Assembly (NCBI GenBank): GCA_019695115.1
Contig: JAIBAP010000007.1
Location: forward strand, 48,793-112,792
From: Caldilineales bacterium
GTDB lineage: Bacteria; Chloroflexota; Anaerolineae; J102
Direction of reading: 5' to 3'
Length of the DNA stretch: 64,000 bases
How positions within the stretch are numbered: position 1 is the stretch's first letter; every line of letters starts with the position of its first letter. Under the pieces are notes generated by a model. That model was not told where the DNA came from, ran no database searches, and saw nothing but the letters and a program-made list of their open reading frames with translations. Positions 1 through 62,918 of the stretch are shown here, piece after piece. A program made the position numbers and the translations under genes.

Positions 1-379
1 GTCCTGCCATAAGTCACGGAGATGAGTGAGCATCAGCGACCAAACCAGAAGGCATGAGGAGAAAGGGGTGTTGGGTACGTATGCAATATCTTACATGAGA
101 CCGGCTTTCGTGTCAAGACCGGCGTAGGGGCTAGAGGCGCCGCGCGCGGCGGTGCGTACAGCATAGAAACCCCCGGAAATCGAGAACCTGTTCCTTCGCT
201 GTGTTCAGGACAAGCTCTGAGCGCAGCGAATGGATGCTTCACTGGTTGATCACTGCAACAACGTTGGCTGATCGACCCGTTCAGCATGACACGACGAGGC
301 GATTCTTGCTCGGGCGACATACCGCCACGAGACATGTGGTACTCAGTAGAAAGGCCGCGACGGGCAGGCCATCGCCGGC

Positions 380-700: not shown

Positions 701-825
701 ACCACAGCCTGAATTACGGCCCGCACCCATTGTCGGCGTACAGGCTCCTCCCTCTCACCCTGGCGCGGCAGGACAGAGCGACCCCGCTTGCATCTGGCCG
801 TAAGAGCAAGCGTCGGCGCTTCCGC

Positions 826-3303: not shown

Positions 3304-4070
3304 CACATCGGCGCCGCAATGGTGATGGTGGGGTCGTATTCGATGGTCTGAACCGTCGTGGATTGGACGCCCCCGGCCTCGCCCACCACTTCCTGCTTCA
3401 CGGGCACCCCGCGCCTGGCGCTGACCCACAGCTTGACCGCGCTGACGACCTGGCTGCCCGACCCCAGGTCGGTGGTCGAGGTGTAGGTGTAGACGTTGGT
3501 CGGCTCACCGTCCACCGTATCCGTCCCGGCCGTCCCGGCCTTGCTGATCGTGCCGATGAGTTGATCGACCGCAAGCGCCGGAAAGGCCGATTGCAGCATC
3601 TCCTTGCCCGATACCGGCAACACCGACCAGGCGCCGTCGCGCTTGCTCCAGACGGCGTCGCCGATGACGATGGTCTCGCTCTCGAAGCTGGCGGTCGTCA
3701 TCATGGTGTGCAGCTTGTCCGGCGGGATCATCTCGCCCACCAGGTTGATCGTGTCGCTGCCGGCGACGATGGTGGTCTTGGTGCGATAGGGGCCGGCCTG
3801 GAGCAGGGCCTGGAGGGCGGCGACAATGGCATCCTGCGGGCTGCCAACCGGCGCCGGAACCGCGGTCGGCGCGGGGGTCGCTGTCGCTGCGGGGGCAGCG
3901 GTGGGAGCAACGGTCGGCGCGGGGGCCGTGGTGGCGGCGGGGGCGGATGTGGCTGCCGGCGCGGCGGGGGCGGTGGTCGCCGCCGGCGCAGAGGTGGGCG
4001 CGGCGGGGCTGCCGCCACATGCGGCCAGCAACAGGGTCAGGACGAACAGAGCGACGAGCAGAGGTTTCAT
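3303..4070 (-). CDS. Secreted lipoprotein with Ala/Pro/Thr-rich linker, unknown function
   Basis: MKPLLVALFVLTLLLAAC lipoprotein signal at 4070, confirmed by cat at 4068-4070. An (APATSAPAATT)n linker is followed by a ~170-aa globular domain. The gene is translationally coupled to the downstream lyase-like gene. Confidence 0.5.
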   Translation of the reverse strand: MKPLLVALFVLTLLLAACGGSPAAPTSAPAATTAPAAPAATSAPAATTAPAPTVAPTAAPAATATPAPTAVPAPVGSPQDAIVAALQALLQAGPYRTKTTIVAGSDTINLVGEMIPPDKLHTMMTTASFESETIVIGDAVWSKRDGAWSVLPVSGKEMLQSAFPALAVDQLIGTISKAGTAGTDTVDGEPTNVYTYTSTTDLGSGSQVVSAVKLWVSARRGVPVKQEVVGEAGGVQSTTVQTIEYDPTITIAAPM

Positions 4071-22871: not shown

Positions 22872-25800
22872 TCAGTGTTCTTCGATCACAATCGCCTTCC
22901 ATCCCTGTTCTCCCTGCATCGGGGCCGTGGCATAGTGCTTTACCCAGGGTTTGACCAGCATCGGGATATGCGGATAAAACATCGGCGCCACCGACGCCTC
23001 GTGTAAGAGCAGGTCTTCGGCCTGGTGGTAGAGACGCATTCGGGCGGCATGGTCGAATTCCCGGCGCGCTTCTTCGACCAGGCGATCATAAGTCGGGTTC
23101 TGCCAACCGGTGAAGCGCCGCACCTGCGCCATCGCCTGGCGCAGCCAGTCGTCAGGGTCGGGGTAGTTGCCCCACCACGACAACCCAAAGACGTGCGGTC
23201 GATCGACCGCCAGGCCAGCCAGATACTCACTGCGCGCCACTACCTCCGCTGTGATGTCGATGCCCAAGTTGTCGCGCCATTGCCCCACCCAGGCCGGCAC
23301 GGTCTGCTCGGCTTCGGGCGTGTAGAAAGTACGGAAGCGGATGGGCGGGAAGCCACGACCATCCGGGTAGCCAGCCTCGGCCAAGAGTTGGCGCGCCCGA
23401 TCGAGATCATAAGGCAGACCGACGCCAGGCCGGTGTCCGGGCATCCTGGCCGGGATCCAGCCTCCGCGATCGATGGCCCAGTGGTCTTTGCCTTGCGCCG
23501 CACGCACGGGAATGACATCTAACGCTCTGGCGAAGGCTTCGCGCACGCGCACGTCGTCGAACGGCGGCCGGCGTACGTCGAAACCGGATGCAACTGTGTA
23601 ATAAACGGGGAAAACTTTACGCTCTTGGCGGAAGCGCCGCTCCACCTCGACCAGGGCCGCCTGTGGCAGATTGCCGATCATCACCGCATCGATTTCACTC
23701 GCCTTGTACATCGCCAGCCCCAACCGCCAATCGGCCAGGGCCTCGGAGTTCAGCAACAGGTGAATCTCTTGCAGGTTGCCGGTGAAGCGTCTGCTAAAGC
23801 CAGGGTTGCGGGTGAGCACGATTTTGTCTCCACGCCGCCAGCTCAGCAATTGAAAGGCGCCGTTGCTGGCGATGTGCTCCGGTTGCGTCCAGGCATCGCC
23901 CCACTGTTCCACCACGTGACGGGGAATGGGGAAAGCGGCCGGCAAGGCCAACAGATGCAGGAAATAGGCAGCGGGTTGGGCCAGAGTCACGGCCAGGGTG
24001 AGATCATCTACCGCTTTCACACCCACCTGCTCCGAATCCTGAAGCCGTCCTTCGTGCAGATCCTGGGCGTTGGCGATGTCGTACAAGAAGCGGGCTGCGG
24101 GCGAATCCCTTTGTGACAACACCCGTTTCCAGGCATACTCGAAATCCTTCGCCGTGACAGGGGCGCCGTCCGTCCAGGCAGCGTCTGACCGCAGATGGAA
24201 GAGGTATCGCCGGCCGCCGTCCAGGGCTTCCCAGCGCCAGGCTGCGTCTGGGATGACCTCCATTTCCGGGCTTTCCTCCACCAGCCCGCTAAAGACGTGA
24301 TGGGTGACGCTGGCATCGCCTAGAATGGGATCGACGCTGAGTGGGTGATAGACATAAAGCAAGCGGAAGGGATGAGGGGCAGGCGGCAGGGTCAGGGCGC
24401 GTACCCTGATCGCCTCTGCCTTCTGCCAGAGGGCAAAGCCTTCGTCGTAGACTTGCCGCGCCGCCTCGAAGGCAAAGACGCTATGATGGGTCTGTCCCAG
24501 CCTGAGAAGCGTATGTGCGGCGGCTTCATCATCACCCACCCCCTGCGCTATCGCCAGCGCGCGCTGATAATAGTCGATTGCCTCCTGGCTGGCGTACAAC
24601 GTGCGCGCCCGGTCGCCCGCCAACCATAGATAGCGCAGGGCCTTTGCCGTCAGCGCGGGGTCGTGCCCGCGGCCTTGCTCGAAGTGAAAAGCCAGCTCGC
24701 CCGCCAGCGCCTCGGCTTGGGTGGCATAGACGTGTTCCATGCCCTCGCCCACTCGACCGTGGATACGTCGCCGCCTCTGTTGCGGCAGTTCAGCATAAAG
24801 AACTTCCTGGATTTTGTGGTGAGTGAAGGCATAGTCTCGTCCCAACGGTCCCGTCCCTTCCTCGATCAGCCGGTGACGCAACAGATCCTCGACCGCCGCC
24901 AGCGTCGCCTCCTCACCTTGGCCCCAGATCGCCGCCAACAGGTCGAAATCGAACTCGCGCCCCAATACTGCCGCCACACTCAGGGCCTCTTGCGTCGTCT
25001 CTGGCACACGACGAGCGCGCGCGAGGATCGCCTCGCCCATCGTGGCGGGCAGAGGCAGCCTGGCCCTGATCGCTTGAGTCAGCTCACCCTGCCAGACGCT
25101 TCCTTCCATCCGCAGCACTCCCGCTTCGAACAACGCTTTGATTACCTGCATCAGGAAGAACGGGTTGCCTTCGGTCTCCCGGTACAACCATCCTGCCAGC
25201 GACCGCGCCTCCTCTCCCCTGCCCGACATCTCGTTCACGAATCGCTCTACGTCCTGTAGCGCCAACGGCGCCAACGTCAGCACCTCTGCCTTACCTTCGC
25301 GACTTAACCGACGGCTCATGGCGTTGAGGGGGTGATCCGATGCCAGCGCTTCGGGCCGAAAAGTGATCGCCAGCAGCGCCGGTCGTCCGTTCAGGCGTTG
25401 GGCCAAATGATGCACCATATCCAACGTCGGCCCTGTGGCCCAATGCAAATCCTCCAAGACGATCAAAATCGGCCCGTGTCCGGAAAGCTCGGACAGGAAT
25501 CTGGCTACGCCTTCGAACAGATGCTGAGGGTCGGCATCATTGGCGCCGCCGGGGGCGGGCCAGGCGCGCGGGCGTAACTCGCCGATCTCCGGCGCCAGCC
25601 GCTCGACCTCGATCAGGGTCCAGGCAGAAAGGGTTGCCGCTTCGTCGGCAGCCAGCGACGGCAACAGCGAGTGCAAGGCCTCGGCCACGGGTTGATAGGG
25701 CAGCACCCGCTCGAACTCGAAGCAACGTCCCCAAAGGACGCGGCCGCCCTGCCACCGCACCCACTGGCTGAAATCCTCCATGAGCCGCGTCTTCCCCCGT

Positions 25801-26708
25801 CCGGCCTCGCCGCGGATGAACACCGGTAACCCGCGTCCGGCCTTTGCCTCAACCCAGCGCGCCCGCAATCGCGTCCATTCCTGCTCGCGCCCCACCAGTC
25901 TGCCCCTTGTCAAGGCGTCGAATGGGTCGCGTCCGCCCGTAAGCGGGACAGGTGGCTCGGATTGCAGGGGCGTGGTCGCCGTGCCAACGCTCTCACCCAA
26001 GCGGTCCGACCGGATCGCTTCGGCGAGGGCGGTGGTTTCGGGCATCGGATCTGCGCCGAGTTCTTTCCGCAAAACATTTTGGCAGCGGCGGTACTGTTCC
26101 AGCGCCGCGCCGCGCCGGCCCAAGGCCGCGAACGTCCGCATGGCCAGCCGGTGGGCATCCTCGCGCAGTGGGTCGCAGGCCAGCAAGCGCCCGGCCGCGG
26201 CCAGCGCCGCCTCGAAATCGCCCTGCACTTCGCGACCAGTCATCAGCCGCGCCAGCGCCTCGGTATAGAGCGCCTCCAGCCGGTATCGCTCCGAGATCAC
26301 CCAGTCATCGTAAAAGCCGTCCAGAAAGTCGCCGCGATAGAGACTCACAGCCTCTTGTGCAGCGTCTAGGTCTCTACGCGCCGCCAGATCCGCAAAGGCA
26401 TCGCTGTCGAGCCAGCAATCGACCTCGGGAGCGAGGAAAACCGTGTGCAAATCGCTGACGATCACACCGTCGCCCAGGCAACGGCGGATATGCCATAGCG
26501 CCGTGGCCAGCGAGTGATGAGCCTTCTCTTCTGGCCTCTCACCCCAAAAGAGATCGGCCAGGCGTTCGCGGGGATGGGGCTGCCGACGATGGACCAGGAG
26601 ATAGGCCAGCAATGACTGAGACTTGAGTGTGGGTGGCTTGAGCAGGCTGCGCTCGCCCATGCACACGTCTATCGACCCGAACAGACGGACTTGTAGAACA
26701 GACGCCAT
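22872..26708 (-). CDS. SARP/AfsR-family regulator (wHTH-BTAD-NB-ARC ATPase-TPR) fused to a C-terminal family-5 solute-binding protein domain
   Basis: N-terminal OmpR-like wHTH (LQVRLFGSIDV...LKSQSLLAYLLV...LADLFWGERPEE), BTAD (LYRGDFLDGFYDDWVISERYRLEALY), Walker A GEAGRGKTRL and Walker B ILIVLEDLHWA, and a TPR-like alpha region. The C-terminal ~520 aa carry SBP_bac_5 hallmarks (WTDGAPVTAKDFEYAWKRVL; Opp/Dpp-like fold). There is no signal peptide or TM segment. Confidence 0.8.
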   Translation of the reverse strand: MASVLQVRLFGSIDVCMGERSLLKPPTLKSQSLLAYLLVHRRQPHPRERLADLFWGERPEEKAHHSLATALWHIRRCLGDGVIVSDLHTVFLAPEVDCWLDSDAFADLAARRDLDAAQEAVSLYRGDFLDGFYDDWVISERYRLEALYTEALARLMTGREVQGDFEAALAAAGRLLACDPLREDAHRLAMRTFAALGRRGAALEQYRRCQNVLRKELGADPMPETTALAEAIRSDRLGESVGTATTPLQSEPPVPLTGGRDPFDALTRGRLVGREQEWTRLRARWVEAKAGRGLPVFIRGEAGRGKTRLMEDFSQWVRWQGGRVLWGRCFEFERVLPYQPVAEALHSLLPSLAADEAATLSAWTLIEVERLAPEIGELRPRAWPAPGGANDADPQHLFEGVARFLSELSGHGPILIVLEDLHWATGPTLDMVHHLAQRLNGRPALLAITFRPEALASDHPLNAMSRRLSREGKAEVLTLAPLALQDVERFVNEMSGRGEEARSLAGWLYRETEGNPFFLMQVIKALFEAGVLRMEGSVWQGELTQAIRARLPLPATMGEAILARARRVPETTQEALSVAAVLGREFDFDLLAAIWGQGEEATLAAVEDLLRHRLIEEGTGPLGRDYAFTHHKIQEVLYAELPQQRRRRIHGRVGEGMEHVYATQAEALAGELAFHFEQGRGHDPALTAKALRYLWLAGDRARTLYASQEAIDYYQRALAIAQGVGDDEAAAHTLLRLGQTHHSVFAFEAARQVYDEGFALWQKAEAIRVRALTLPPAPHPFRLLYVYHPLSVDPILGDASVTHHVFSGLVEESPEMEVIPDAAWRWEALDGGRRYLFHLRSDAAWTDGAPVTAKDFEYAWKRVLSQRDSPAARFLYDIANAQDLHEGRLQDSEQVGVKAVDDLTLAVTLAQPAAYFLHLLALPAAFPIPRHVVEQWGDAWTQPEHIASNGAFQLLSWRRGDKIVLTRNPGFSRRFTGNLQEIHLLLNSEALADWRLGLAMYKASEIDAVMIGNLPQAALVEVERRFRQERKVFPVYYTVASGFDVRRPPFDDVRVREAFARALDVIPVRAAQGKDHWAIDRGGWIPARMPGHRPGVGLPYDLDRARQLLAEAGYPDGRGFPPIRFRTFYTPEAEQTVPAWVGQWRDNLGIDITAEVVARSEYLAGLAVDRPHVFGLSWWGNYPDPDDWLRQAMAQVRRFTGWQNPTYDRLVEEARREFDHAARMRLYHQAEDLLLHEASVAPMFYPHIPMLVKPWVKHYATAPMQGEQGWKAIVIEEH

Positions 26709-34436: not shown

Positions 34437-35456
34437 TCAGACAGCGGCGCTGAATTCTCTGCATGAACCCCGAACAATCAACTTTGTCGGCATTTTTGCA
34501 ATCTTTTCCTCCAATTTCTGGCCGTCAATCAGAGAGAAAAGCATCTTTGTCGCAGTGAAGGCCATCTTGGCTACGAACTGATCCACGGTTGTCAAGTCAA
34601 AATATGCAGCCTCTGGGATATTATCGAAGCCAACAACCGACAAATCATCTGGTATCTTCAGACCCATCTTATTCGCTACCTGAATGACGCCAATCGCCGA
34701 TTGGTCGTTGGCGGCGAAAATCGCTGTCGGTCGATCGACCCGTTCCAACAAACTTCGTGCACAGCGGGCGGCGGTTTCGGTCGTATAGTCTCCGGCTGCG
34801 ATAAGCGATTCATCGATGGCGACGCCAGCCTGGTCGAGCGCTGCCCGATAGCCCATCAATCGGCGAACGGAGCTTTGCAGTTCCGGTCGTCCCGAAATGT
34901 GGCCGATGCGGCGATGGCCCAATTGCAGCAAGTAGTGCATAGCGTCCAAGGCGCCTTGATAATTGGTGGCATGAATCGAGGGGTAACTCGGATCGATCAT
35001 GGCCGGGTCGATCGATACGAGGGGGGCATCGGTCGTGAACTCGGCCGCGACGGGAGCGACAACGATCACGCCGTCGGTAATCGAGTTGTTTAGCAAGGTG
35101 ACATATTTCTGTTGGTGCAAGGCAGTTTCGTATTTGCGTACGTCGCCTGTGGTGTAGATGAGCAGATCCGACTCAGAAGCTGCAACCGCCTCGTTGACCC
35201 CCTTCATCACTTCGATGGCAAAAGGATAGGCGACATCGGGCATGATCAAGCCGATCAAATTCGTCTTGCTACCGCGCATGCTTCTGGCCGCCAGGTTGGT
35301 GGTATAGCCGAGTTGGTCGATGATGTCTTGGACCTTCTCTTGTGTGTCTACGGCCACATCGACCTTGCCGTTCAAGACGCGCGAGACGGTGGAGACAGAT
35401 ACTCCCGCCGCCTTGGCGACATCCAGGATGGTGACTGCGCTTCTTTTGCGTCGCAT
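34437..35456 (-). CDS. LacI-family transcriptional regulator
   Basis: N-terminal HTH (TILDVAKAAGVSVSTVSRVLNG) and a periplasmic-binding-like effector domain. A perfect 35-bp palindrome lies upstream. Confidence 0.9.
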   Translation of the reverse strand: MRRKRSAVTILDVAKAAGVSVSTVSRVLNGKVDVAVDTQEKVQDIIDQLGYTTNLAARSMRGSKTNLIGLIMPDVAYPFAIEVMKGVNEAVAASESDLLIYTTGDVRKYETALHQQKYVTLLNNSITDGVIVVAPVAAEFTTDAPLVSIDPAMIDPSYPSIHATNYQGALDAMHYLLQLGHRRIGHISGRPELQSSVRRLMGYRAALDQAGVAIDESLIAAGDYTTETAARCARSLLERVDRPTAIFAANDQSAIGVIQVANKMGLKIPDDLSVVGFDNIPEAAYFDLTTVDQFVAKMAFTATKMLFSLIDGQKLEEKIAKMPTKLIVRGSCREFSAAV

Positions 35457-35483: not shown

Positions 35484-35518
35484 GATATCGTTGCCGGTAA
35501 CGTTACCGGCAACGATAT
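35484..35518. promoter_or_regulatory. LacI-family operator-like perfect palindrome upstream of the LacI gene
   Basis: GATATCGTTGCCGGTAACG|TTACCGGCAACGATAT with 17/18 matching arms and a central CG, as in LacI/CcpA-type operators. It starts 28 nt upstream of the LacI start codon. Confidence 0.6.
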
Positions 35519-43827: not shown

Positions 43828-44295
43828 TCATTCGGCCACAGCCGAGGCCAGCCCCCCGCCCAAGGCCCCCATCATCCCCCCCACCAGCCAGATCACGCCG
43901 CACAAAAGCACCGAGAAGAACAGACTGCCGCCCACCGTATCCAGCCGCATCAAGTCCATGCCGGCGTTGGCAAAGGCCTCGAGCACGCCCTGCGGCAGCA
44001 GGTGCAGGCTGGTCATGGTGTCGCCGGCCAGGTTGAAGCGCACCGGCGACAAGGCGATGTTGACCAGGCCGTCCACGATCCCGGCCAGGATGCCTGCGCC
44101 CAGGCCCGCCACCGCCGCCCGGTTGCGGAAACCGAGCTGGATGGCCATGCGCCCGGCCAGGAAGCCGCCAATGGCATAGGCAAGCAGCCGCAGCGGCAGA
44201 GCGGCAAAGCCACAGACCGGGATCACCCCCAGCACCGAGAAAGCCACAGCCAGCAGTGCGCCCACCAGCCCCCCGCGCAACAGGCTACGGCTCAC
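43828..44295 (-). CDS. Small integral membrane protein (4 TM), unknown function
   Basis: 155 aa with Gly/Ala-rich hydrophobic helices. GTG start with GGAG upstream. Confidence 0.45.
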   Translation of the reverse strand: MSRSLLRGGLVGALLAVAFSVLGVIPVCGFAALPLRLLAYAIGGFLAGRMAIQLGFRNRAAVAGLGAGILAGIVDGLVNIALSPVRFNLAGDTMTSLHLLPQGVLEAFANAGMDLMRLDTVGGSLFFSVLLCGVIWLVGGMMGALGGGLASAVAE

Positions 44296-44571
44296 GGTCG
44301 TTTCTCCGGCGCGGCGGCGCTTCGTTCGTCGTTCATGGCTTCATTCTACACAGCCGCCGGTGCGCGGCCAAATAATCGGTCTCTGAACACAGATAGAGAA
44401 ATGTGGAAGTTGTTCCACTATGTACCAGGCGTTGATCGTTTCTATCATTGCAGGGTGGGAGGGTCTTGAGTGAGCAAAGGAAGCAATCCCGTTCTCCACG
44501 CGAGTTGAGTTACTTTTCGGAGAACGTAGTTTATATTACGGATTATCTCGATATTTGGAGGTATGTTTATT

Positions 44572-44594
44572 TGTGATTTCTTGAACAAATCACA
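44572..44594 (+). promoter_or_regulatory. Palindrome TGTGATTT-cttgaac-AAATCACA upstream of the secreted CBM protein gene
   Basis: Perfect 8-bp inverted arms with TGTGA/TCACA CRP-like half-sites, ~25 nt upstream of the ATG in an unusually AT-rich 300-bp intergenic region. Confidence 0.45.
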
Positions 44595-44618
44595 GGTGAA
44601 ATAAGTAGAGGTACTTCG

Positions 44619-47177
44619 ATGACGCGCATCATCTCACTCCTGATCGGCTTCGTGCTCGTGGTTGGCATGGCGGTGGCGATGGCGTCCCAGGCGGCCGAGG
44701 AAAGGCCAACGGCAGGGGATGGCGACGATTGGGGGACGGGGAAGGAGCGGTCAGCCTCGTCGAGGCAGACGTTGCTGAACAGCGCCCCCTACCCGCGCAC
44801 CTACATGTTCTACCATAGCAGCCCACCCAATAACTGCGTGACGACGACGGACCGAGACGGCGTCTTGGGTCAGGCGGCCGTGTATGCCAATGTGATCGAG
44901 ACGCTGATGCAATACGGGGCCAACGACCCGGCGCCGGGCTATGAGGGTTGGTCGTCGCTGAAACCGTGGCGCCTGCCGACGAGCGGCAGCACCTGCACGG
45001 ACAGCGACCCCAAGCTGGCGGCGTGGCTGCAAAGCCAGTCGGAGGCGCTGGCGAACGGGACGCAGCGAAACTGTTGGGGCGAGACCGTTCTGCACTCGCA
45101 AATTGCCTTCATCTCGACCTGGAACTACTACGCCGATGCCATTGGCGGTTTTCGCAAGCTGCACCAGGATGCGATGCTGGCCTGCGACGAAGCGGATGGG
45201 ACGTCGGCGGGAGAGACGCTGCCGGTGGAGTATCAGACCAGGCAGACCTGGGCGGTGCACACCACGGGCGCCAACAATGCCGCCACCCGGGGGCTGATAC
45301 CGCGCTGGCGGGAGTATGGCGGGGCCAATGTCCTGGTCGGCGCGCCGGTCAGTCCGGGCGCGGATAACATCTGCTCGACGGCGCCATCGCCGTGGGGGAC
45401 GAATGCGCAGTGGCGCTATGTGGATTGGCTGCCAGCCTGGCTGCACGAGCGGATTGGCGGCATTGCGGCCTGGGATGGGGTGCGGATGGACCTGCCGGGC
45501 AACATTCACTCGTACTGGAGTCCGAAGGACATCGACCAAGATCTGGATGGCTGTCGTGATTATGCGCAGAATGGCGCGCCGGTGACATCGCCTCCATGTC
45601 CAGTTGAAGCAATACCCGCAGGGCGCAAGTATCTGGACGCCATCTATCGCGCTGGCAACGACTACATCTTCGGCAAGATCCATGAGTCAGGCTATCATCC
45701 GGCCTGGCTGATCGGCGGCAACGACGCCTGGATGCCCCAAGATAGCGACAGTAACTACATGCCCGGCTTCGCCGCCTCAGACGAGATCGATTTCACCATC
45801 GCCGAGAACTGGACGGATCGTTGGGAAACCACCTCCGGGGGCGCTCAACTATACTACTTTTCGCAATGGCGAGACCCCAACACTGGCGGTGGCGTCAATG
45901 TGAGCTTTGCTCAAGCAATCAAGATCTGGGATCAGTGGTCGCACCACGGCAACGGCGACAAGTCCTATGTCATCCTCTCCAAATGCATCTTCAACGGTCT
46001 GATCCCACCCGGCTGGACGTGTACACCGACCAACATGTACCGGGAATTTCGCTTCAGCCTGGCTGCGGCTACGATGCTCGACGCCCATCACGGCTTCATC
46101 GGCGCCGCCAACACCCTGCGGCCGGAATGGTTCGACGAATATGCCGTCTATCCCACCAATCAGGCGGCAGACACCCCCACCGAAAAAGCCCTGGGCATCG
46201 GCTGGCTGGGGATGCCGGCCGCCGACATGTACACCCCCAACGCCAGCGGCCAGGTCAGCAGCACCATCTACAGCGCCCTCGCCGCCGCCAACTGGCAGAC
46301 TGTCATCGATAACAGCGTCTGGGTGCGCTACTTCAAGCGTGGGGTGGCGTTGCTCAACCCGACAGGGAGCAGCCGGACGGTGACGCTGCTGCCCGGCGAG
46401 TATTGGCGCATCCAGGGCGTCCAGGATGCCGCCGTCAACAACGGGACTCAGATCAGCGGCAACAGCGTGTCCGTGCCCCCGCACGATGGCCTGCTGCTGG
46501 TCAAAGGCCCGCTGACTTCCTCCTGCTCGACGACGCCGCCTACTGACACACCCACACCCACCCGGACGCCCACCCCGACTCGAACACCCACCCGCACGCC
46601 GACGCCGACGCTCACACCCACGCCCACCCGCACGCCGACGCCCACACCAACACCCACGCCCTCGGCCAACAGCATCGTGCTGGAAGCGGAAAGCGGCGTC
46701 CGCACCAACATGTCGGTGGGCGTCAGCGGCGGTTGCAGTTACATCTACGGCGGCGACTGGCAGACGGGCTGGAGCGATTACACCTTCACGGCTGCCGCCG
46801 GAACCTATCGTCTGCACGGCGTCGTCGCCAACCCGGGCGGCGTGGGGTCGTTCTACTACAAGCTGGATGCACAGGCGGTCAAGCTGTGGTACTACACGCC
46901 TGGCGATGCTAACTGGCATTGGGATACCGATGACGAAACCCTGCCGCTGGCGACGGGCGGCCAGCACACATTGCGCATCTATGGCGGGCGACCCAACAGC
47001 CGGCTGGATGTGATCGAGATCAACCTGGGGGCGACGCCGACATTCAACGGCAGCACGTGCCTGGGCAGCCTGGCGCAAATCTTCAAGCAGCCGCAGCGGG
47101 AGCCGCGTCATCTCGAGGCCGTCCTGGCGCGCCTGCGTCGTTTGTTCGCACCTCTCATGACAAGGAGAAGACTATGA
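44619..47177 (+). CDS. Secreted protein: unknown ~600-aa N-terminal domain, PT linker, C-terminal CBM6/CBM35-like module (putative novel glycoside hydrolase)
   Basis: Signal peptide MTRIISLLIGFVLVVGMAVAMASQA. A (TPTPTRTP)n linker lies at aa ~645-690, and the C-terminal SIVLEAESG...GDWQTGWSDYTF...LDVIEI is typical of CBM6/35-like sugar-binding modules. AGAGG RBS upstream. Confidence 0.6.
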   Translation: MTRIISLLIGFVLVVGMAVAMASQAAEERPTAGDGDDWGTGKERSASSRQTLLNSAPYPRTYMFYHSSPPNNCVTTTDRDGVLGQAAVYANVIETLMQYGANDPAPGYEGWSSLKPWRLPTSGSTCTDSDPKLAAWLQSQSEALANGTQRNCWGETVLHSQIAFISTWNYYADAIGGFRKLHQDAMLACDEADGTSAGETLPVEYQTRQTWAVHTTGANNAATRGLIPRWREYGGANVLVGAPVSPGADNICSTAPSPWGTNAQWRYVDWLPAWLHERIGGIAAWDGVRMDLPGNIHSYWSPKDIDQDLDGCRDYAQNGAPVTSPPCPVEAIPAGRKYLDAIYRAGNDYIFGKIHESGYHPAWLIGGNDAWMPQDSDSNYMPGFAASDEIDFTIAENWTDRWETTSGGAQLYYFSQWRDPNTGGGVNVSFAQAIKIWDQWSHHGNGDKSYVILSKCIFNGLIPPGWTCTPTNMYREFRFSLAAATMLDAHHGFIGAANTLRPEWFDEYAVYPTNQAADTPTEKALGIGWLGMPAADMYTPNASGQVSSTIYSALAAANWQTVIDNSVWVRYFKRGVALLNPTGSSRTVTLLPGEYWRIQGVQDAAVNNGTQISGNSVSVPPHDGLLLVKGPLTSSCSTTPPTDTPTPTRTPTPTRTPTRTPTPTLTPTPTRTPTPTPTPTPSANSIVLEAESGVRTNMSVGVSGGCSYIYGGDWQTGWSDYTFTAAAGTYRLHGVVANPGGVGSFYYKLDAQAVKLWYYTPGDANWHWDTDDETLPLATGGQHTLRIYGGRPNSRLDVIEINLGATPTFNGSTCLGSLAQIFKQPQREPRHLEAVLARLRRLFAPLMTRRRL

Positions 47178-48307
47178 ATCATCCCTTTGTACGCCTGGCG
47201 CTCCTTTGCATCACCGCCATTCTGGTGATGGCGGTCGCGGCCTCCTCGACCGTGGCCTCGCCGCCTTTGCCCTCCCAGGCCAACGTGACCTCGGTGCAGT
47301 TCGACGGCGAGGTGCTGACGGTGGAAGTGCGCGGTGACTATGCCTATGTCGGGCTCGACACGGGCCTGGTCATACTCGATATCACCCAGCCAACTCATGC
47401 AATCGTCAAGGGCATGACCACAGGTCGAACAATCACGATTGCTCTCAGTGGTGACTATGCCTACACTTCCGGGGGGGGACTGCTGCGGGTGATCGATGTC
47501 TCGCAGCCGGCGCGGCCGCTGAAACTGTCCGAGAGCGATGCGTTTGGCAGCATCGACGATCTGGCCGTCTATGGCGATCATGTGTACCTGGCCAGCGAGA
47601 TGGGTTTCCGCATCGTCGATGTAAGCGATCCGCTTGCGCCGGTTGTGGTCGGGGCTGTGCCGGATCGCGGGGAGTTGAAGGGGCTGGATGTGGCGCCCGA
47701 CGCCACGACCGGACGGCTGTATGCCTATGTGGTCGGCTATCCGGTGGAAGTCCTGACCGATGTCTGGGTCGGCGGCGGCCTAAGAGTCCTCGATGTCACC
47801 GAACCGACGAACCCGCAGGAGGTCTATCCGTGCAGCAATGCGGATCCCTGCGCTCAGGAGTTTGGACCGCATGATATCCGCGTGCAGGGTCAATTCGCCT
47901 ATATCGCCAACTACCGCGACAGTGTGGCCGGTGCGAAAGGCCTCACCATCTATGACCTGGCCGATCCTCTACATCCGGTGGGGGTCGGCGCCTACCCCAC
48001 CCATGAATCCTCCTACCATGTGACTACATCGGGGAACAGAACCTTTTTCACCACCGCCTACATGCCATACCCGTGGCAAGGCGATCTGCTGTACAGCATC
48101 GACGTCACCGACAAGGCTCATCCGCGCTCGCTTGCCGCACAGGAGCTGGACCAGAATCGGACGGGAGGTCTGGCGGCTTCGCAGGCCAAAGGCTGCGTGT
48201 TTGCAGCGCAGCAGGCGCGGGGCTTGAAGATCCTCTGCCAGGCCACGGCCGACCTGACCCCGCCCTCGCTGACATATCTGCCCATGTTGACCAGGCCGGC
48301 GGGGTGA
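47174..48307 (+). CDS. LVIVD-repeat beta-propeller protein, secreted
   Basis: Signal peptide MNHPFVRLALLCITAILVMAVAA. Repeated (Y)AYVxxGxxGLxI(L/V)DV(S/T)xPxxP units are present. AAGGAGAAG RBS; the start overlaps the upstream gene's stop (ATGA). Confidence 0.6.
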   Translation: MNHPFVRLALLCITAILVMAVAASSTVASPPLPSQANVTSVQFDGEVLTVEVRGDYAYVGLDTGLVILDITQPTHAIVKGMTTGRTITIALSGDYAYTSGGGLLRVIDVSQPARPLKLSESDAFGSIDDLAVYGDHVYLASEMGFRIVDVSDPLAPVVVGAVPDRGELKGLDVAPDATTGRLYAYVVGYPVEVLTDVWVGGGLRVLDVTEPTNPQEVYPCSNADPCAQEFGPHDIRVQGQFAYIANYRDSVAGAKGLTIYDLADPLHPVGVGAYPTHESSYHVTTSGNRTFFTTAYMPYPWQGDLLYSIDVTDKAHPRSLAAQELDQNRTGGLAASQAKGCVFAAQQARGLKILCQATADLTPPSLTYLPMLTRPAG

Positions 48308-48394
48308 GAAAGTCCGGCGAAGCTTTCGGTGAACTTTCAACCGCTTGTTTTTGTTGATTTCAGGCGACCCCTACTGCTTCACAAGCCATCTTCA

Positions 48395-49768
48395 TTACCA
48401 GCGCAGATGCCGCGGATAGTGATTCTTGACCACCCTGCCCACCCGCTTGCCCCAGCCCAGCCCAAACCCCGCCAGCGTGACCAACACCCACCCCTCCGGC
48501 CCCTCAGCGGTGAGCGTTTCGCCAGCCAGATAGGCCCCTGCCTCGACCTCCGAGACGGCGGCGGTGTTCAGAACGTCGGCCGGGGCGAGGGCCAGCGCCA
48601 GGGCGTGGTCAGGCTCGAAACGCTCGCCGGCGATGCGGCCCCCGCGCAGCCCCGCCCGCACCACCCGCACCCCCTGCCAGAAGTCCGGCCCGACCGGCGT
48701 CCGATAGAGATGCTCGCCGTACTGCGCCCAGCCGTCTTCGGGGAGGGTCAGGCGCACAGTCTGTTCCCAGAAGCGGCGGAGGGGAGCGGGCGGCATGGCC
48801 CTGCGGACCGGCGGGAGGGGAGCGGGGTCGGAGTCGCCGGTGCGGGCGAGGAGGGCGAAGAAATGCCCCTCGCCCGGCGCCCGGTGCGGCCAGAGGCGCA
48901 CACATCGCTCCAGCGGCAGCCCGGCGGCCAGGTCGCGCTCGATCCAGTCCGGGCGGCCGGGGTCGAAGCCGGGCGGCCGGGGCGGCGACAGCAGCTCGAA
49001 ATCGGGCCGGCGGCGCAAGAAGCGGGCGACCGCGCCCTCGTCTTCCTCGGGTGCAAAGGTGCAGGTGGCATAGAGCAGCCGTCCGCCGGGGCGCACCATG
49101 TGGGCGGCCGCCAGCAGGATGGCGTCCTGGCGCAGGGCGCAGCCCGCTACGGCGGCCGGTCGCCACTGGCGGCGGGCGGCAGGCGTCTTGCGGAACATGC
49201 CCTCGCCCGAACAGGGGGCGTCCACCAGCACCCGGTCGAAGCGCTCCGGCCAGCGTTCGGCCAGGCGCTCCGGGGCCTCGTTCGTCACCAGAATGTTGGC
49301 GGCCCCGAAGCGTTCCAGGTTGGCGACCAGGGCCGGGATGCGGTCCCCGACCGCTTCGTTGGCCACCAGCAACCCCTGCCCTGCCAGTCGCGCCGCCAGA
49401 TCGGTGGCCTTGCCGCCGGGCGCGGCGCAGAGGTCGAGCACCACTTCGCCGGGTTGCGGGGCCAGCAGGCTGGCCGCGGCCAGGGCGCTGGGGTCTTGCA
49501 GATAATAGAGACCGGCGGCGTGGTAGGGGTGGTGGCCGGGGCGGGCTTCCAGGTCGGGCGGGAGCAGGAAGCTATCGGGGCGCCAGGGGACGGGCGGCAT
49601 CTCCCAGCCGGTGAGGGCTTGCAGGACAGATGGGGCGATCTTGAGGGTGTTGGGGCGCAGGGCCTGGCGCGGGGGCTGGTCGAAGCTGGCGCGAAAGGCG
49701 GCGGCTTCGTCGCCCAGCAGGGCGTCCATGCGGGCCAGAAAGGCGGAGGGAAGGTCAGGGATGGGCAT
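48395..49768 (-). CDS. 16S rRNA m5C methyltransferase, RsmB/RsmF (NOL1/NOP2/Sun) family
   Basis: SAM-binding motif VLDLCAAPGGKAT, DRVLVDAPCSGEGMFRK and the catalytic LLYATCT motif. Confidence 0.85.
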   Translation of the reverse strand: MPIPDLPSAFLARMDALLGDEAAAFRASFDQPPRQALRPNTLKIAPSVLQALTGWEMPPVPWRPDSFLLPPDLEARPGHHPYHAAGLYYLQDPSALAAASLLAPQPGEVVLDLCAAPGGKATDLAARLAGQGLLVANEAVGDRIPALVANLERFGAANILVTNEAPERLAERWPERFDRVLVDAPCSGEGMFRKTPAARRQWRPAAVAGCALRQDAILLAAAHMVRPGGRLLYATCTFAPEEDEGAVARFLRRRPDFELLSPPRPPGFDPGRPDWIERDLAAGLPLERCVRLWPHRAPGEGHFFALLARTGDSDPAPLPPVRRAMPPAPLRRFWEQTVRLTLPEDGWAQYGEHLYRTPVGPDFWQGVRVVRAGLRGGRIAGERFEPDHALALALAPADVLNTAAVSEVEAGAYLAGETLTAEGPEGWVLVTLAGFGLGWGKRVGRVVKNHYPRHLRW

Positions 49769-49789
49769 GACAGGGGCTATTCTACACGA

Positions 49790-49819
49790 TTGACAGCCTC
49801 CTTGCCCCCATGCTAAGAT
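49790..49819 (+). promoter_or_regulatory. Putative pyrG promoter (TTGACA-18-TAAGAT)
   Basis: A consensus -35 box and a TAnnnT -10 box, 130 nt upstream of pyrG, divergent from rsmB/F. Confidence 0.45.
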
Positions 49820-52445: not shown

Positions 52446-52565
52446 AGGGCGAGGGGACCTCGCCCCTACGCGGGGTGCCCCTCCACCCACCTTCGAGGGC
52501 GAGGGGACCTCGCCCCTACGCGGGGTCCTCCCCGCCCCACCAGGGCGAGGGGACCTCGCCCCTAC
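52446..52565. repeat. REP-like array of three tandem hairpin units (AGGGCGAGG-gga-CCTCGCCCT...)
   Basis: Three copies of agggcgaggggacctcgcccctac at 52446, 52496 and 52542, each an 8-bp stem with a 3-nt loop. They follow a GC-rich inverted segment (52396-52440), between yebC and ruvC. Confidence 0.85.
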
Positions 52566-59387: not shown

Positions 59388-59458
59388 CGAGGTTCCAGTT
59401 TAGCGTGGGGGGTGAAGTCCCTGAGATTGTTCCCAACTCTGATCGGGTGACGCGGAAA

Positions 59459-61057
59459 TCACGAAGAAACCGTGATCTGCGGGGTAGGCCATGACATCAG
59501 CAACCCTAATGCCTGCAAATTGCCTTGAATCGTGCGATGCTGTTCTTGCATCAGTCTCAGTAATTCATCTGCATCTCTGTCATCGTGTTGGGCTTTGAAG
59601 TGAGGGTTGACAGCCTTCAGATCGTAGTTGTTTTTTTCGATTTGCCCGCGAGTGATGGACCAGCTTCTGTCGCTATCTGCAAGACCTGGCATCAAATTGA
59701 AAAAACCAGCGAAATGTTCAGCAGTTAAAGGTTCTGTCTTACTGATCTTTATATCGGATAGGTCGTAGTACCAAATTTTCTCTGTCAGCTCTCCTTTGAT
59801 GAAAAACAGGATATCTGTCTTGATCGATGCTCCCGCGTTGACAAAAGTTCCTGACGGTAAACTGATAACACACCACAGGTTACACGTATCCAGGAGTTTT
59901 CGCTTTGTTTGTACAAAAGCTGTATCATTGGTTCGAAACAGAATGCCCTCATCGACGACGATTGCGCAGCGTCCTCCCGGAGCAAGGCTATCGATGACAT
60001 GCTGAAGGAAAAGCAACTGGGTAGAACTCGACTTGTAGGCGAATTGCGTTTGCGCCACCTTGCTTTCTTTGCCGCCAAAGGGGGGATTGGTCACGATCAC
60101 ATCGAAGCGCCTCGGTGCGTGTTCGAACAGCCCGCCGTAGATCTCGTTCCCGGTCAGTGTGTTGCCATGCCAAATATGCGGTTCATCGATGCCATGAAGG
60201 ACGAGGTTAGCGAGTGCGATGGGGTAGATCAGGTTTTCCTTCTCACGTCCGTAGAGATGACACGGTTGGATCGCTGAGTCGGGGGGCAGTTCGCCAACGG
60301 AATCTGCTTGTTTCTGCCTCACATGTTCATAGCATTGCACCAGAAAACCACCGGTGCCACAGCAAGGATCATAAATAGACTCGTCCGGTTGCGGATCGAT
60401 GGCCCTGACCATCGCCCGCACAACTTCGCGAGGGGTGAAGAATTGCCCACCGTCGTTGGACTTGTGCCCCATTTTTAATAACAAGCCTTCGTAGACTTGT
60501 GAGAGTGGGAAGATATGCGTTGGATCGATGCTGTCAGCGCGTATCTCCTGAACGCGATTCAGAACCTCGATCAGATTGTATTCGGTATCGATACGCGTCC
60601 GTTCGATATTTGCAGCGATTTCGCCGACGATCTTCTGGCGTGATGTCGCTTGGGGGTGCTGGCCGAGTCCCCTCAGGTATGGAAAAAGTTCATCATTGAC
60701 AAACGCCAGCAGAGAACCTTCACCCTTCGTTTCCAGCTCGCGGCGCTTCCATCCCTGCGGCTTATGGTTGTCTGGGTCGTGAAACAGTGATGGTTCATAG
60801 GGCGCGGCCCAGTCGTGCCAGCGATAGGGCGACTCGATGGAGTAATCAAAGACCCGTCCTGTTGCTTCGACTCTTTCTGCCTCGTTCGTTTCCTGCTCGT
60901 CAAGAATGCGCAAGAACAGGATCCAGGTAAGCTCAGGTATGTACTGCAAGGCGCCGGCGCAGTTCGAGCGTCGCAAAATATCGGTAATTCCTTTGATCGC
61001 TTTGTTCAAAGACTGCTGGGTGGGAAAGACCTTCCCGGATCTTTTAGTTGTCATCAT
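59459..61057 (-). CDS. HsdM-like N6-adenine DNA methyltransferase (gamma class)
   Basis: HsdM_N-like N-terminus, motif I DPCCGTGGFLV and motif IV NPPFGG. The gene lies in a ~47% GC island. Confidence 0.85.
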   Translation of the reverse strand: MMTTKRSGKVFPTQQSLNKAIKGITDILRRSNCAGALQYIPELTWILFLRILDEQETNEAERVEATGRVFDYSIESPYRWHDWAAPYEPSLFHDPDNHKPQGWKRRELETKGEGSLLAFVNDELFPYLRGLGQHPQATSRQKIVGEIAANIERTRIDTEYNLIEVLNRVQEIRADSIDPTHIFPLSQVYEGLLLKMGHKSNDGGQFFTPREVVRAMVRAIDPQPDESIYDPCCGTGGFLVQCYEHVRQKQADSVGELPPDSAIQPCHLYGREKENLIYPIALANLVLHGIDEPHIWHGNTLTGNEIYGGLFEHAPRRFDVIVTNPPFGGKESKVAQTQFAYKSSSTQLLFLQHVIDSLAPGGRCAIVVDEGILFRTNDTAFVQTKRKLLDTCNLWCVISLPSGTFVNAGASIKTDILFFIKGELTEKIWYYDLSDIKISKTEPLTAEHFAGFFNLMPGLADSDRSWSITRGQIEKNNYDLKAVNPHFKAQHDDRDADELLRLMQEQHRTIQGNLQALGLLMSWPTPQITVSS

Positions 61058-61062
61058 GTTGT

Positions 61063-61875
61063 CTATTTGTTCGAAGTTCGCTCTCTGGTGCGATTCGATA
61101 CAGCATCGACGAACTGGAGATACGCCTGAATATAAGCAGATAGTTCAAACAGATCCGTTTTTCGCGACTTATGAACGATCCGCAAGATTTTGCCAGCGTT
61201 ATGGGGATCAGGTGTGAGTTCGCCTGGGTGTTTCTTGCTCGGCACGAAAATGCCGGTTTCGTCTACTCTGCCGCCCCGTAGCGCCACGCTTGTATCACGT
61301 TCTTGGGCCAGCTCTACCGCGGGAATGACAACATACGAGAATATCTCCGGGTATTCGTATGGCGTGCCGTCGGCAAGTGCGTCGTTGCGCCACGCCCATC
61401 CTACCATGACCACCAGGTCTTCTTCGGCGTTGATCAGACTGCTCAGGACCTCGAAGCGCGCCGACTGTTCATCAGAGTCAGCATCGACGGCCTTCATCTC
61501 GATTTGAACTCGTTTTCCCAGTACGGCATCCCGAATGAAGAAATCCGGGTACTCATGGGCTACGGCAAAGGTCAGCCGCAAGTCGAAACCAAACGCCTCC
61601 AGAATCGAGTCATCCATGTATTTGCTGAGCGCATACTCCAGCATGGCGCCAATACGGGTGCGATAAGAGGATAACTGGCGTCTGCCCGTCGGCAATGGCT
61701 CGGTAGCCCGGTCGCGTTTGGCCAGTTGTCGCGGAGCAAAAAGGGAGTTGACCTGGTTGACTGCCTGTGGCATGAGCGCGTTGATGAAGATTGTGATCTC
61801 CTCGATCATGGCTTTCCCATTCGCGATCTTGTTGCCAATACTGAGTATTTCAGGATGAAGATTCATCATCTGCAA
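61063..61875 (-). CDS. Putative PD-(D/E)xK nuclease (candidate restriction endonuclease of the island R-M module)
   Basis: YPDFFIRD...VQIEMKAV fits a PD...ExK catalytic core. It sits between the hsdS-like and hsdM-like genes and overlaps hsdS by ~25 nt. I recognise no other homology. Confidence 0.4.
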   Translation of the reverse strand: MQMMNLHPEILSIGNKIANGKAMIEEITIFINALMPQAVNQVNSLFAPRQLAKRDRATEPLPTGRRQLSSYRTRIGAMLEYALSKYMDDSILEAFGFDLRLTFAVAHEYPDFFIRDAVLGKRVQIEMKAVDADSDEQSARFEVLSSLINAEEDLVVMVGWAWRNDALADGTPYEYPEIFSYVVIPAVELAQERDTSVALRGGRVDETGIFVPSKKHPGELTPDPHNAGKILRIVHKSRKTDLFELSAYIQAYLQFVDAVSNRTRERTSNK

Positions 61876-62485
61876 GTCGATTATCCTTTTCTGTGTCGGT
61901 GATTTTCAGTGGGAAAGGGAATTCTGAGAGAATTTTCTGTTCATAAGCATCAAGAAGATGCAATTGCCTCTGATAAGCAAGACTTGTCTCGATCACCAGA
62001 TTCATCCGGCGCGTCAATTCGTCGGCCAGGTGCTGTTGTTCTTGGATGGAGTCAGGAACAAGGACTTCTTGTGCAAGCACGTGTCGCATATTGGCGCGGG
62101 GCATCCGCGCCCCCGTCCGCTCTTGCATGGCCGCCTGGACGGTCTGTGGTCTTCGCAATATCCAGGCGAGGAAATCCTTTGAAACGCCTGGTCGCGGTAA
62201 GAGCGGCACAAGTTCGGTAGAGCAACGACCCGCGAAGTCAGGAACCGCGACCTTATTCAGATAGGGCCGCAGTTTGCAGTAGAGCACGTGGCGGGCGTCA
62301 AACAGAAATGCTGTCCCATGGCCGTGGTTGGAGGAGGTCAAGCCGTCGTACAGAATTCTGCCTGTAACGCTTTCGATATGCTCCAGACCCAGAAATGGTA
62401 GCTTAGCAGCCACCGGTGAATCCGGCGCTATGACCGTTCGGTTTTCGACGCACAAATCCCCGATGGCCTGCCATCGATATGCCAT
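61850..62485 (-). CDS. Type I R-M specificity subunit HsdS, single target-recognition domain (half-size)
   Basis: The TRD fold pattern (LGDLCVE...LPFLGLEHI...DARHVLYCKLRPYLNKVAV) and the conserved central region VPDSIQEQQHLADEL with a following coiled coil are typical of HsdS. Confidence 0.7.
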   Translation of the reverse strand: MAYRWQAIGDLCVENRTVIAPDSPVAAKLPFLGLEHIESVTGRILYDGLTSSNHGHGTAFLFDARHVLYCKLRPYLNKVAVPDFAGRCSTELVPLLPRPGVSKDFLAWILRRPQTVQAAMQERTGARMPRANMRHVLAQEVLVPDSIQEQQHLADELTRRMNLVIETSLAYQRQLHLLDAYEQKILSEFPFPLKITDTEKDNRLADDESSS

Positions 62486-62530
62486 TGCAGACTCCAGATG
62501 TCTGAAAATATCGCTCGAGGCAACGCTGGC

Positions 62531-62788
62531 CTAGGCCGCTTGCAGCGCGCCCTCAAAAGATCCCTGCAGAGCCTGGAGAATGACCTGTGGAAACTCAACC
62601 ACCAGGAAGTAATCGGCAGGGTAGAGATAATCTTCGCCGCTTTCATCGACGATGCGCAGATCGCCTTCCAGCCGCGCATCTTCATCGGGCACAATTCGAT
62701 ACAACTTGTGTAATTCCAGAGAAGCCGGATAATCCCAGTTGTTTACGCAAATCGCATACTTTTGTGTCGAATGCATTGCTTCTTTCAT
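62531..62788 (-). CDS. Hypothetical small protein (85 aa) at the 5' end of the low-GC island operon
   Basis: ATG at 62786-62788. Low-GC codon usage like the rest of the island. No recognised domain. Confidence 0.3.
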   Translation of the reverse strand: MKEAMHSTQKYAICVNNWDYPASLELHKLYRIVPDEDARLEGDLRIVDESGEDYLYPADYFLVVEFPQVILQALQGSFEGALQAA

Positions 62789-62918
62789 GACGGCAATCCA
62801 AATAGCACTTTCGCTTGAATTCTTTCGCGGTGCACTCGGTGATCTCGAAGCGCATGATGTCTCATTCTACCGCAAGCGGGGGGGATCAGCCAACGACTGC
62901 CGGCAGCCCGGCAGCCGC

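Follow-up and report, generated by a model that had tools for sequence, protein, structure and literature searches.

A secreted candidate glycosidase of the GHL15/GH168 clan and its LVIVD-repeat propeller partner in a Caldilineales bacterium

We analysed 64,000 nucleotides of contig JAIBAP010000007.1 of a Caldilineales bacterium (Chloroflexota; assembly GCA_019695115.1), referred to here as the window, and concentrated on two adjacent open reading frames (ORFs), ORF1 and ORF2, and on the intergenic region upstream of them. The results make it likely that ORF1 and ORF2 are an operon for a secreted glycosidase of the GHL15/GH168 branch and a conserved partner, a propeller built of LVIVD repeats. 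An earlier note, made from the sequence alone, had proposed that ORF1 is a candidate new carbohydrate-active enzyme family with an unassignable N-terminal region, controlled by a dedicated regulator through a CRP-like palindrome. The fold and the chain of homology place ORF1 in a known superfamily, the gene pair is conserved, and the palindrome is not a CRP site. The features of the two genes are as follows, in window coordinates (CBM, carbohydrate-binding module).

44619..47177, plus strand: ORF1, predicted secreted multidomain protein of 852 aa
44619..44687, plus strand: predicted Sec signal peptide, residues 1-23, cleavage after AMA (sequence features judged by eye)
44781..46298, plus strand: predicted enlarged (beta/alpha)8 barrel with long insertions, residues ~55-560
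45489-45491, plus strand: predicted catalytic Asp291 in WDGVRMD, end of strand 4 (GH168 alignment)
45804-45806, plus strand: predicted catalytic Glu396 in IAENWT, end of strand 6 (GH168 alignment)
45810..46043, plus strand: strain-variable cassette, residues ~398-475, directly after the catalytic Glu
46299..46514, plus strand: C-terminal beta-sandwich subdomain of the catalytic module, residues ~561-632 (model)
46530..46664, plus strand: Pro/Thr-rich linker, residues 638-682 (45 residues, 84% P+T)
46665..47036, plus strand: CBM6-like beta-sandwich module, residues 683-806, sub-threshold
47037-47177, plus strand: 46-residue basic tail after the CBM module, end of ORF1
47174..48307, plus strand: ORF2, predicted secreted LVIVD-repeat seven-bladed beta-propeller of 377 aa

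The N-terminal domain of ORF1 and its predicted active site

Translation of ORF1 gives the 852-aa product that the earlier note had described, with a signal peptide-like N-terminus (MTR, a hydrophobic core and AMA followed by SQ) and a Pro/Thr linker. The N-terminal region is likewise beyond the reach of the family-level sequence models applied to it. Residues 1-635 matched no Pfam-A family, even at E <= 10, and nothing relevant in NCBIfam. A phmmer search of ORF1 against all Protein Data Bank (PDB) chains matched only the linker and the C-terminal module, and hmmsearch with a profile of the ORF1 family (A1) matched no chain at E <= 10. The PDB set includes the GH168 chains 8ya6, 9jof, 9jos, 9nhf, 9f9v and 8rg5, so a dbCAN GH168 hidden Markov model (HMM) would probably miss ORF1 as well.

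The region can nevertheless be assigned, because searching by fold and comparing profiles with profiles revealed its relatives. Residues 50-635 were modelled with AlphaFold (predicted template modelling score, pTM, 0.74; mean predicted local distance difference test, pLDDT, 64.9), and the model was confident in the core and the C-terminal sandwich. Foldseek with this model, a check that the earlier note had itself suggested, returned a known fold, with Fun168D as the top three matches, at a structure-based identity to GH168 of 10-14%. ORF1 gave no match to Pfam GHL15 (PF14885; gathering threshold 27 bits) at E <= 10, and two other members of its family, P0011 and P0012, scored 18.1 and 24.1 bits. 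The family profile had 954 weaker matches at E <= 1e-3 among 1.84 billion representatives. Matches 11-76 of the list (66 proteins) were taken as the distant set for profile comparison, and 55 of these 66 independently match Pfam GHL15, with E values down to 1e-40. Using hhalign, profile A1 aligned with the 66 distant relatives at a probability of 100% (E 5e-44, 416 columns), and the profile of these GHL15-type relatives matched GH168 PDB chains at 1e-16 to 1e-8. The similarity of ORF1 to GH168 is transitive only, passing through GHL15-type intermediates.

GH168 enzymes consist of a barrel and a small beta-sandwich (PMC11685898), and residues ~55-632 of ORF1 have the same layout. The beta-sandwich (~561-632) was the most confident part of the model (pLDDT 87-92) and the part of the profile most widely common to distant homologues. 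Together, the profile comparisons and the model clearly identify the N-terminal domain as a rare and deeply diverging branch within the GHL15/GH168 (GH114-like) TIM-barrel superfamily, and the sequence evidence indicates that it is very probably a carbohydrate-active catalytic domain. The proposal of a new carbohydrate-active enzyme family is thus upheld as to carbohydrate activity, which is very probable; as to novelty, the domain is a deep branch of a superfamily that is already known.

The catalytic residues of GH168 are D172 and E243 in WfGH168_II, where Y99, N101 and N218 are also conserved (PMC12534559), and D152 and E228 in Rho5174 (PMC11685898). The Tyr of the -1 subsite is conserved in GH168, GH29, GH107 and GH151 (PMC12534559). 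In HMMER alignments, the GH168 catalytic pair is matched by the second Asp in the motif DGVFMD and by the Glu in MIEHF, and the Asn by that of YNG; the hhalign counterparts in ORF1 are W285-DGVRM-D291, A395-E396-N397 and G367-N368-D369. D291 and E396 are invariant in all family sequences covering both positions (15/15). In the AlphaFold model they are located at the C-terminal ends of predicted strands, a placement that would be expected for TIM-barrel glycosidases. On these alignments, we regard it as very probable that ORF1 contains an active glycosidase domain belonging to the GHL15/GH168 clan.

Several observations weigh against this assignment. There was no direct sequence match of ORF1 or of the family profile to a solved GH168, Pfam GHL15 does not detect ORF1 with the cut-off relaxed to E <= 10, and confidence in the model is no more than moderate, with ~140 insertion residues at pLDDT <50. 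In addition, the position of the GH168 -1-subsite Tyr is occupied by an invariant Phe (F164, in an IAF motif), as read with moderate confidence from a remote alignment, and the position of Asn218 varies across the family (N, D, V, G). Given the Tyr-to-Phe change and the variable Asn, ORF1 may instead have a different chemistry or a non-catalytic role.

The different -1 subsite also suggests a substrate different from that of GH168, and the substrate of ORF1 is probably not a sulfated fucan. The characterised GH168 enzymes (Fun168A/FunA, Fun168D, Rho5174 and PbFucA) are endo-alpha-1,3/1,4-L-fucanases. We consider it highly improbable that ORF1 is a true endo-alpha-fucanase of GH168 with sulfated fucans as its substrate: its nearest fold neighbours are GH168 structures and the catalytic Asp/Glu pair aligns with theirs, but the structure-based identity is low, no GH168 chain matched at the sequence level, and the -1-subsite Tyr and Asn are replaced and variable, respectively. 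The ORF1 barrel is ~200 residues larger than that of GH168, with a ~110-residue N-terminal extension and long insertions. A DxDxDG-like loop after strand 4 (D306-G311) is common to the GHL15-type relatives and absent from the aligned GH168 chains. The host is a Caldilineales metagenome-assembled genome (MAG) of the Chloroflexota and not a marine organism that degrades fucoidan. Among the window genes scanned or listed, none encodes a sulfatase or fucosidase, and ORF1 has a conserved LVIVD partner. Families GH114, GH191, GH135 (Ega3) and GH166 (PelA hydrolase domain) comprise endo-alpha-glycanases for galactosaminogalactan and Pel exopolysaccharides. Their barrels are much smaller than that of ORF1, at ~250-290 residues, and lack a beta-sandwich; no sequence similarity to ORF1 was detectable, and propeller partners are not known for them.

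At the other end of ORF1, the isolated C-terminal module scored 22 bits (E 2e-4) against Pfam CBM_6, for which the cut-off is 28.9, and in phmmer it matched two repeated modules of PDB 8zvk at 9e-12 and 2e-12. The earlier note had called the module CBM6/35-like; on sequence grounds "CBM6-like" appears a fair, if unproven, label, with the score below the family cut-off. Most ORF1 homologues have CBM96-like C-terminal regions in place of this module. The founding CBM96 binds alginate (PMC9971899), which hints, though weakly, that the substrate is an acidic polysaccharide.

The LVIVD propeller and its association with the ORF1 family

As the earlier note had reported, ORF2 is an LVIVD gene whose ATG (47174) overlaps the stop codon of ORF1 (ATGA); it is preceded by AAGGAG. 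The protein is annotated as hypothetical at NCBI (MBX7233620.1) and matched Pfam LVIVD (PF08309) at E 1e-28 with 98.6 bits (gathering threshold 20.2). Its structural model (pLDDT 85.5) has seven four-stranded blades. ORF2 is therefore a clear member of the LVIVD/"choice-of-anchor B" propeller proteins, secreted and with seven predicted blades, but it belongs to a rare subfamily without the C-terminal anchor domain, which is associated specifically with the ORF1 family. This subfamily (~377 aa) comprises ~9 clusters at E < 1e-67 and is as rare as the ORF1 family. LVIVD-repeat surface proteins were described by Adindla et al. 2004 (PMC2447325), and literature searches on LVIVD, GHL15 and AaBglC yielded no functional information. 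ORF1 and ORF2 are on the same strand, overlap by ATGA and have no promoter-like site in 46900-48500; a weak terminator-like hairpin is present at 47125-47140, where 0.7 such hairpins are expected by chance. From these sequence signals, the two genes probably form a translationally coupled two-gene operon.

The ORF1 family is rare. It was represented by 9 proteins among 5.8 billion clusters, by 10 of the 1.84 billion representatives at E < 1e-30 in the profile search, and by three loci among 185,579 species (one genome each). These three loci are in MAGs labelled Anaerolineae, Chloroflexota and Calditrichia, the last on a 2.5-kb contig. A protein-pattern scan of metagenomes detected no ORF1 relatives. 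The index of the assembly collection lists the ORF1 protein itself in 26 blocks, with contigs of at least four samples among them. The window lies on a 133-kb JGI contig present in the public samples JGI 3300013121 and 3300006092, and by exact sequence ORF2, CTP synthase and RuvA are proteins of the NCBI Caldilineales bacterium MAG.

We then compared gene neighbourhoods for all ORF1-family members whose loci could be retrieved. In 9 of 12 independent loci (the window, L005, L006, L007, L008, L011, L012, L014 and L017/L018) the family gene is flanked by LVIVD genes, and weakly so in a tenth (L015), so that the pairing seen in the window is conserved across loci. The arrangements outside the window are listed below.

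L005: LVIVD(632) - LVIVD(377) - family(1009) - LVIVD(383) - family(1009) - LVIVD(388)
L006: LVIVD - LVIVD - family - LVIVD
L007, L011, L012: LVIVD immediately upstream of the family gene
L008: LVIVD upstream, with a 126-aa ORF between
L014 (Anaerolineae MAG): family gene preceded by four LVIVD genes
L015: upstream ORF weakly LVIVD-like
L017/L018 (sister strain): family gene followed by two LVIVD genes
L010, L013, L016: no LVIVD neighbour

Fused FG-GAP propellers were found in 10 of the 66 GHL15-type relatives, indicating that a barrel with a propeller is a recurrent combination.

Comparison with the sister strain L018 showed where the two genes vary. ORF1 is 97-100% identical at the nucleotide level outside the cassette and apart from the length of the linker, which is 12 residues longer in the sister strain, while identity in the cassette (45810-46043, residues ~398-475) falls to 57-80%. 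Such a mosaic cassette directly after the catalytic Glu, in strains that are otherwise near-identical, suggests recombination-driven diversification of substrate-facing loops. In L018 (6738-9038), a tandem pair of LVIVD genes takes the place of the single gene of the window (47174-48307). For its first 450 nt the additional copy matches ORF2 exactly and for its last ~140 nt it is 91-98% identical, whereas the central blades diverge. LVIVD arrays of up to four genes were also observed at other loci (L005, L014).

A further locus, L019, from a more distantly related genome (GCA_041918515.1), has an intact LVIVD gene, 69% identical to ORF2, in a different neighbourhood. Its ORF1 orthologue (7667-8002) is a frameshifted remnant of ~330 nt from which ~2.2 kb has been deleted, the equivalent of window positions 44619-44862 being joined almost directly to that of 47089 onward. 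The DNA of the basic tail (47037-47177), which carries the hairpin at 47125-47140, is conserved in L019, and this stretch may be mainly an upstream or translation-initiation region of the LVIVD gene.

Not all of these data favour a fixed partnership. The three loci L010, L013 and L016 have no LVIVD neighbour; in two of them the contig breaks off on one side. The intact LVIVD gene beside an ORF1 remnant in L019 indicates that the partner is not strictly dependent on ORF1, and structure searches returned no informative neighbour for the propeller. The ORF1-LVIVD pair is thus conserved but not obligatory for the propeller.

ORF2 is most likely a non-catalytic binding or scaffolding subunit and less likely a second enzyme. 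As an enzyme, it would be a polysaccharide lyase (PL) or a metal-dependent hydrolase that acts with ORF1 on an acidic polysaccharide, which we regard as quite unlikely. Several PL families (PL11, PL22, PL24, PL25 and PL42) are beta-propellers, and this general precedent would fit such a role. The only sequence-level PDB match of ORF2 is the Sb-PTE propeller hydrolase 5hrm (E 6e-4), which also appears among the fold matches, and the CBM96-like modules of most ORF1 homologues point to the same class of polymer through the alginate binding of the founding CBM96 (PMC9971899). However, no lyase or hydrolase family was matched, and apart from the Sb-PTE propeller the top structural neighbours were generic WD40-type scaffolds (template modelling score, TM, ~0.6). 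The invariant or near-invariant columns in the alignment are Pro, Gly, Tyr, Ala and Leu, and no conserved acidic or metal-binding residues were identified in it.

The palindrome upstream of ORF1

The intergenic region upstream of ORF1 contains the following features.

43828-44295, minus strand: gene for a 155-aa hydrophobic membrane protein, neighbour of the intergenic region
44296..44618, no strand: AT-rich divergent intergenic region between the 155-aa membrane-protein gene and ORF1
44572..44594, plus strand: inverted repeat TGTGATTT-CTTGAAC-AAATCACA with 8-bp perfect arms and a 7-nt spacer

The region (44296-44618, 323 bp) is AT-rich, as had been noted, with a GC content of 0.47 versus 0.63 for the window and a lowest 300-bp value of 0.44, ~3 standard deviations under the mean. 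Yet ten segments of the window have GC <0.50, and the AT-richness upstream of ORF1 is therefore an ordinary intergenic dip of a GC-rich genome rather than exceptional. The promoters of both divergent genes are presumably within 44296-44618. TACACA-18-AATAAT at 44347-44376 was the sole plus-strand match to a promoter-like consensus, in a scan that cannot locate a transcription start, and a manual hexamer search near the palindrome found no convincing -35/-10 pair. An Rfam search of the leader returned mir-308 alone at chance level (E 0.77, 17 bits versus a gathering threshold of 60). A Shine-Dalgarno sequence, GAGG, is located at 44608-44611, ahead of the ORF1 ATG at 44619.

The inverted repeat at 44572-44594 ends 24 nt before the ORF1 ATG (~25 in the earlier note) and has a wider form, TGTGATTTCTT-G-AACAAATCACA, with 11-nt arms that are 10/11 complementary. 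It resembles a CRP/FNR operator in having inverted TGTGA and TCACA pentamers upstream of a gene. The CRP/FNR operator, TGTGA-N6-TCACA, has a 6-nt spacer and a 16-bp core in a 22-bp site, whereas the pentamers here are separated by 13 nt (TGTGA-N13-TCACA). With this spacing it is not a CRP site, and the description as CRP-like is not supported; the repeat itself may have a functional role. TGTGA-N6-TCACA sites with <=2 mismatches are not enriched in the window (14 observed versus 17.5 expected), and no CRP-family gene is present among the window genes annotated or scanned. A LacI operator was also considered and rejected: the palindrome lacks a central CG-type core, and the LacI-family gene 9 kb upstream has its own palindrome. 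The latter, ATATCGTTGCCGGTAACGTTACCGGCAACGATAT, is a perfect 34-bp palindrome at 35485-35518, 29 nt upstream of the LacI-family gene (34437-35456, minus strand), and is probably the operator of that regulator. Its dyad is far stronger than that upstream of ORF1.

In the window and the homologous loci we found no sign of the dedicated regulator or of a regulon. No transcription-factor gene adjoins ORF1-ORF2, the nearest regulators being the LacI-family gene and an OmpR-type response regulator 9 kb downstream. A search of the 64-kb window for the palindrome, from exact to 3 mismatches, returned only the site at 44572-44594 itself. The relaxed pattern TGTGA-N13-TCACA gave three 1-mismatch sites in the window, all inside ORFs and without inner symmetry, and searches of the window with the left-arm block and with a 9-mer gave nothing meaningful, the left-arm block not being repeated. 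In homologous loci the palindrome was absent, save in the identical strains L001-L004 (contigs of the same organism). A DNA-block scan of metagenomes gave 84 matches, all of them chance and none with the window flanks or with ORF1/ORF2 relatives.

For footprinting, L019 provided the sole usable orthologous upstream region. The intergenic region of L017/L018 is 99% identical to that of the window and therefore uninformative, and these loci were set aside. The L019 region retains ATTTGTGATTTCTnnAACAA, the left arm and spacer, as its only alignable non-coding block. The right arm is AAGTTGTA instead of AAATCACA, and dyad symmetry is lost. As the ORF1 orthologue in L019 is dead, the right arm of a site there could have decayed.

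The palindrome may be an operator, a hairpin in the 5' untranslated region (UTR) or a product of chance. Among Markov-simulated 323-bp regions of matching composition, ~4% contained a perfect inverted repeat whose arms were >=8 nt long and whose spacer was <=12 nt. With ~50 intergenic regions per window this rate is suggestive and not compelling, and ~30 distinct inverted repeats with arms >=8 bp are present in the window. These figures, together with the uniqueness of the palindrome, the unconserved dyad and the lack of a detectable regulon, bring the likelihood that it is a functionless chance feature of the AT-rich region close to even; the conservation of left arm and spacer as one block in L019 and the position immediately upstream of the ribosome-binding site argue the other way.

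The same conserved block, the only non-coding stretch alignable with L019, could instead mark the operator of a dimeric, non-CRP factor that is encoded elsewhere and controls the ORF1-ORF2 operon, broadly in line with the earlier note. The 23-bp near-perfect palindrome with its wider 11-nt arms, its low chance frequency per region and its location between the likely promoter region and the Shine-Dalgarno sequence are consistent with such a site. We nevertheless consider an operator unlikely, given the N13 spacing as against the N6 of CRP/FNR, the single copy per 64 kb (with 1-mismatch sites all within ORFs and a non-recurrent left-arm block), the absence of an adjoining regulator gene, the loss of dyad symmetry in L019 and the lack of a similar motif upstream of the homologous operons at other loci. 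A hairpin in the 5' UTR of the ORF1 mRNA, serving for example as a stabiliser or processing signal, seems improbable. When folded as RNA, the stem grows from 8 to 14 bp through G-U pairs on the plus strand, which are A-C mismatches on the other strand, a hint of strand specificity, and it ends 13 nt before the Shine-Dalgarno sequence, leaving it free. However, the z-score of the fold is just -1.8 (10/200 shuffles fold equally well), no Rfam family matched, L019 has neither a conserved stem nor compensatory changes, and the hairpin may not be transcribed at all.

Neighbourhood, proposed mechanism and implications

On the other strand upstream of ORF1 are genes for a secreted protein of CBM9/CBM96/disaggregatase-like type and for two membrane proteins related to PTPS_related/PMT_2 (GT-C-like). 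Such a neighbourhood would fit remodelling of cell-envelope or matrix glycans and is not a classic polysaccharide-utilisation locus. Downstream, the plus-strand ORF at 48329-49816 (GC 0.73-0.76) was rejected as a spurious shadow of the real gene, which is on the minus strand, and the operon therefore ends at ORF2. This gene and other features of the window are as follows.

48395-49768, minus strand: RsmB/RsmF-type (rsmF-like) methyltransferase gene, convergent, downstream of ORF2
52447-52561: hairpin GGGCGAGGGGACCTCGCCC in three copies (starts 52447, 52497 and 52543) between a yebC-like gene and ruvC; the copies look like repetitive extragenic palindromic (REP)-type intergenic repeats
59411-62891: AT-rich block (GC 0.42-0.48) with a type I restriction-modification methylase gene (HsdM-like, 59459-61057), probably acquired horizontally
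22872-26708, minus strand: 1278-aa protein with BTAD, AAA_16, TPR and family-5 solute-binding domains, an unusual regulator architecture
286-3351, plus strand: 1021-aa ORF with no Pfam match at E <= 1e-4

We propose the following mechanism. ORF1 would be exported by Sec, its catalytic module being an enlarged (beta/alpha)8 barrel with a beta-sandwich, in which Asp291 and Glu396, at the ends of strands 4 and 6 respectively, would act as the catalytic pair, as predicted from GH168 homology. It would most likely cleave an alpha-linked extracellular polysaccharide in endo mode, and the CBM6-like module, tethered by the Pro/Thr linker, may keep it on the polymer. The substrate is perhaps a matrix polysaccharide or exopolysaccharide from the organism itself or from neighbouring organisms, a reading suggested by the adjacent genes for GT-C-like membrane proteins and for the CBM9/CBM96 protein. 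ORF2, the secreted seven-bladed LVIVD propeller and conserved partner, would most likely serve as a binding or scaffolding subunit.

A bolder possibility, which we put forward only tentatively, is that the ORF1 family founds a new CAZy family, a sister of GH168 in the GH114-like clan. Its specificity would be new, directed at a matrix polysaccharide of Chloroflexota or of biofilms, and it would act with an obligate, dedicated LVIVD partner, both carrying variable cassettes that co-diversify. If true, this would provide the first function for the LVIVD/"choice-of-anchor B" repeat, and the loops after the catalytic Glu of ORF1 would form co-diversifying substrate-recognition surfaces with the central blades of ORF2, which also varies in copy number.

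To our knowledge, the GHL15/GH168 group is so far known only through marine fucanases, and the non-marine GHL15-type proteins have no known substrate. The ORF1 branch is deeper than these, a rare and clearly delimited clade with intact catalytic residues, and its partner comes from a repeat family that was described in 2004 and still has no known function. Variation between natural strains indicates which loops may determine specificity. The case also bears on annotation: dbCAN- and Pfam-style HMMs would probably leave ORF1 "hypothetical", as NCBI does ORF2, whereas fold and profile-profile methods place it. Caldilineales and Anaerolineae have been reported from activated sludge and biofilms. 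Should this MAG come from such a habitat, an enzyme pair that acts on matrix polysaccharides could be relevant to the structure of flocs.

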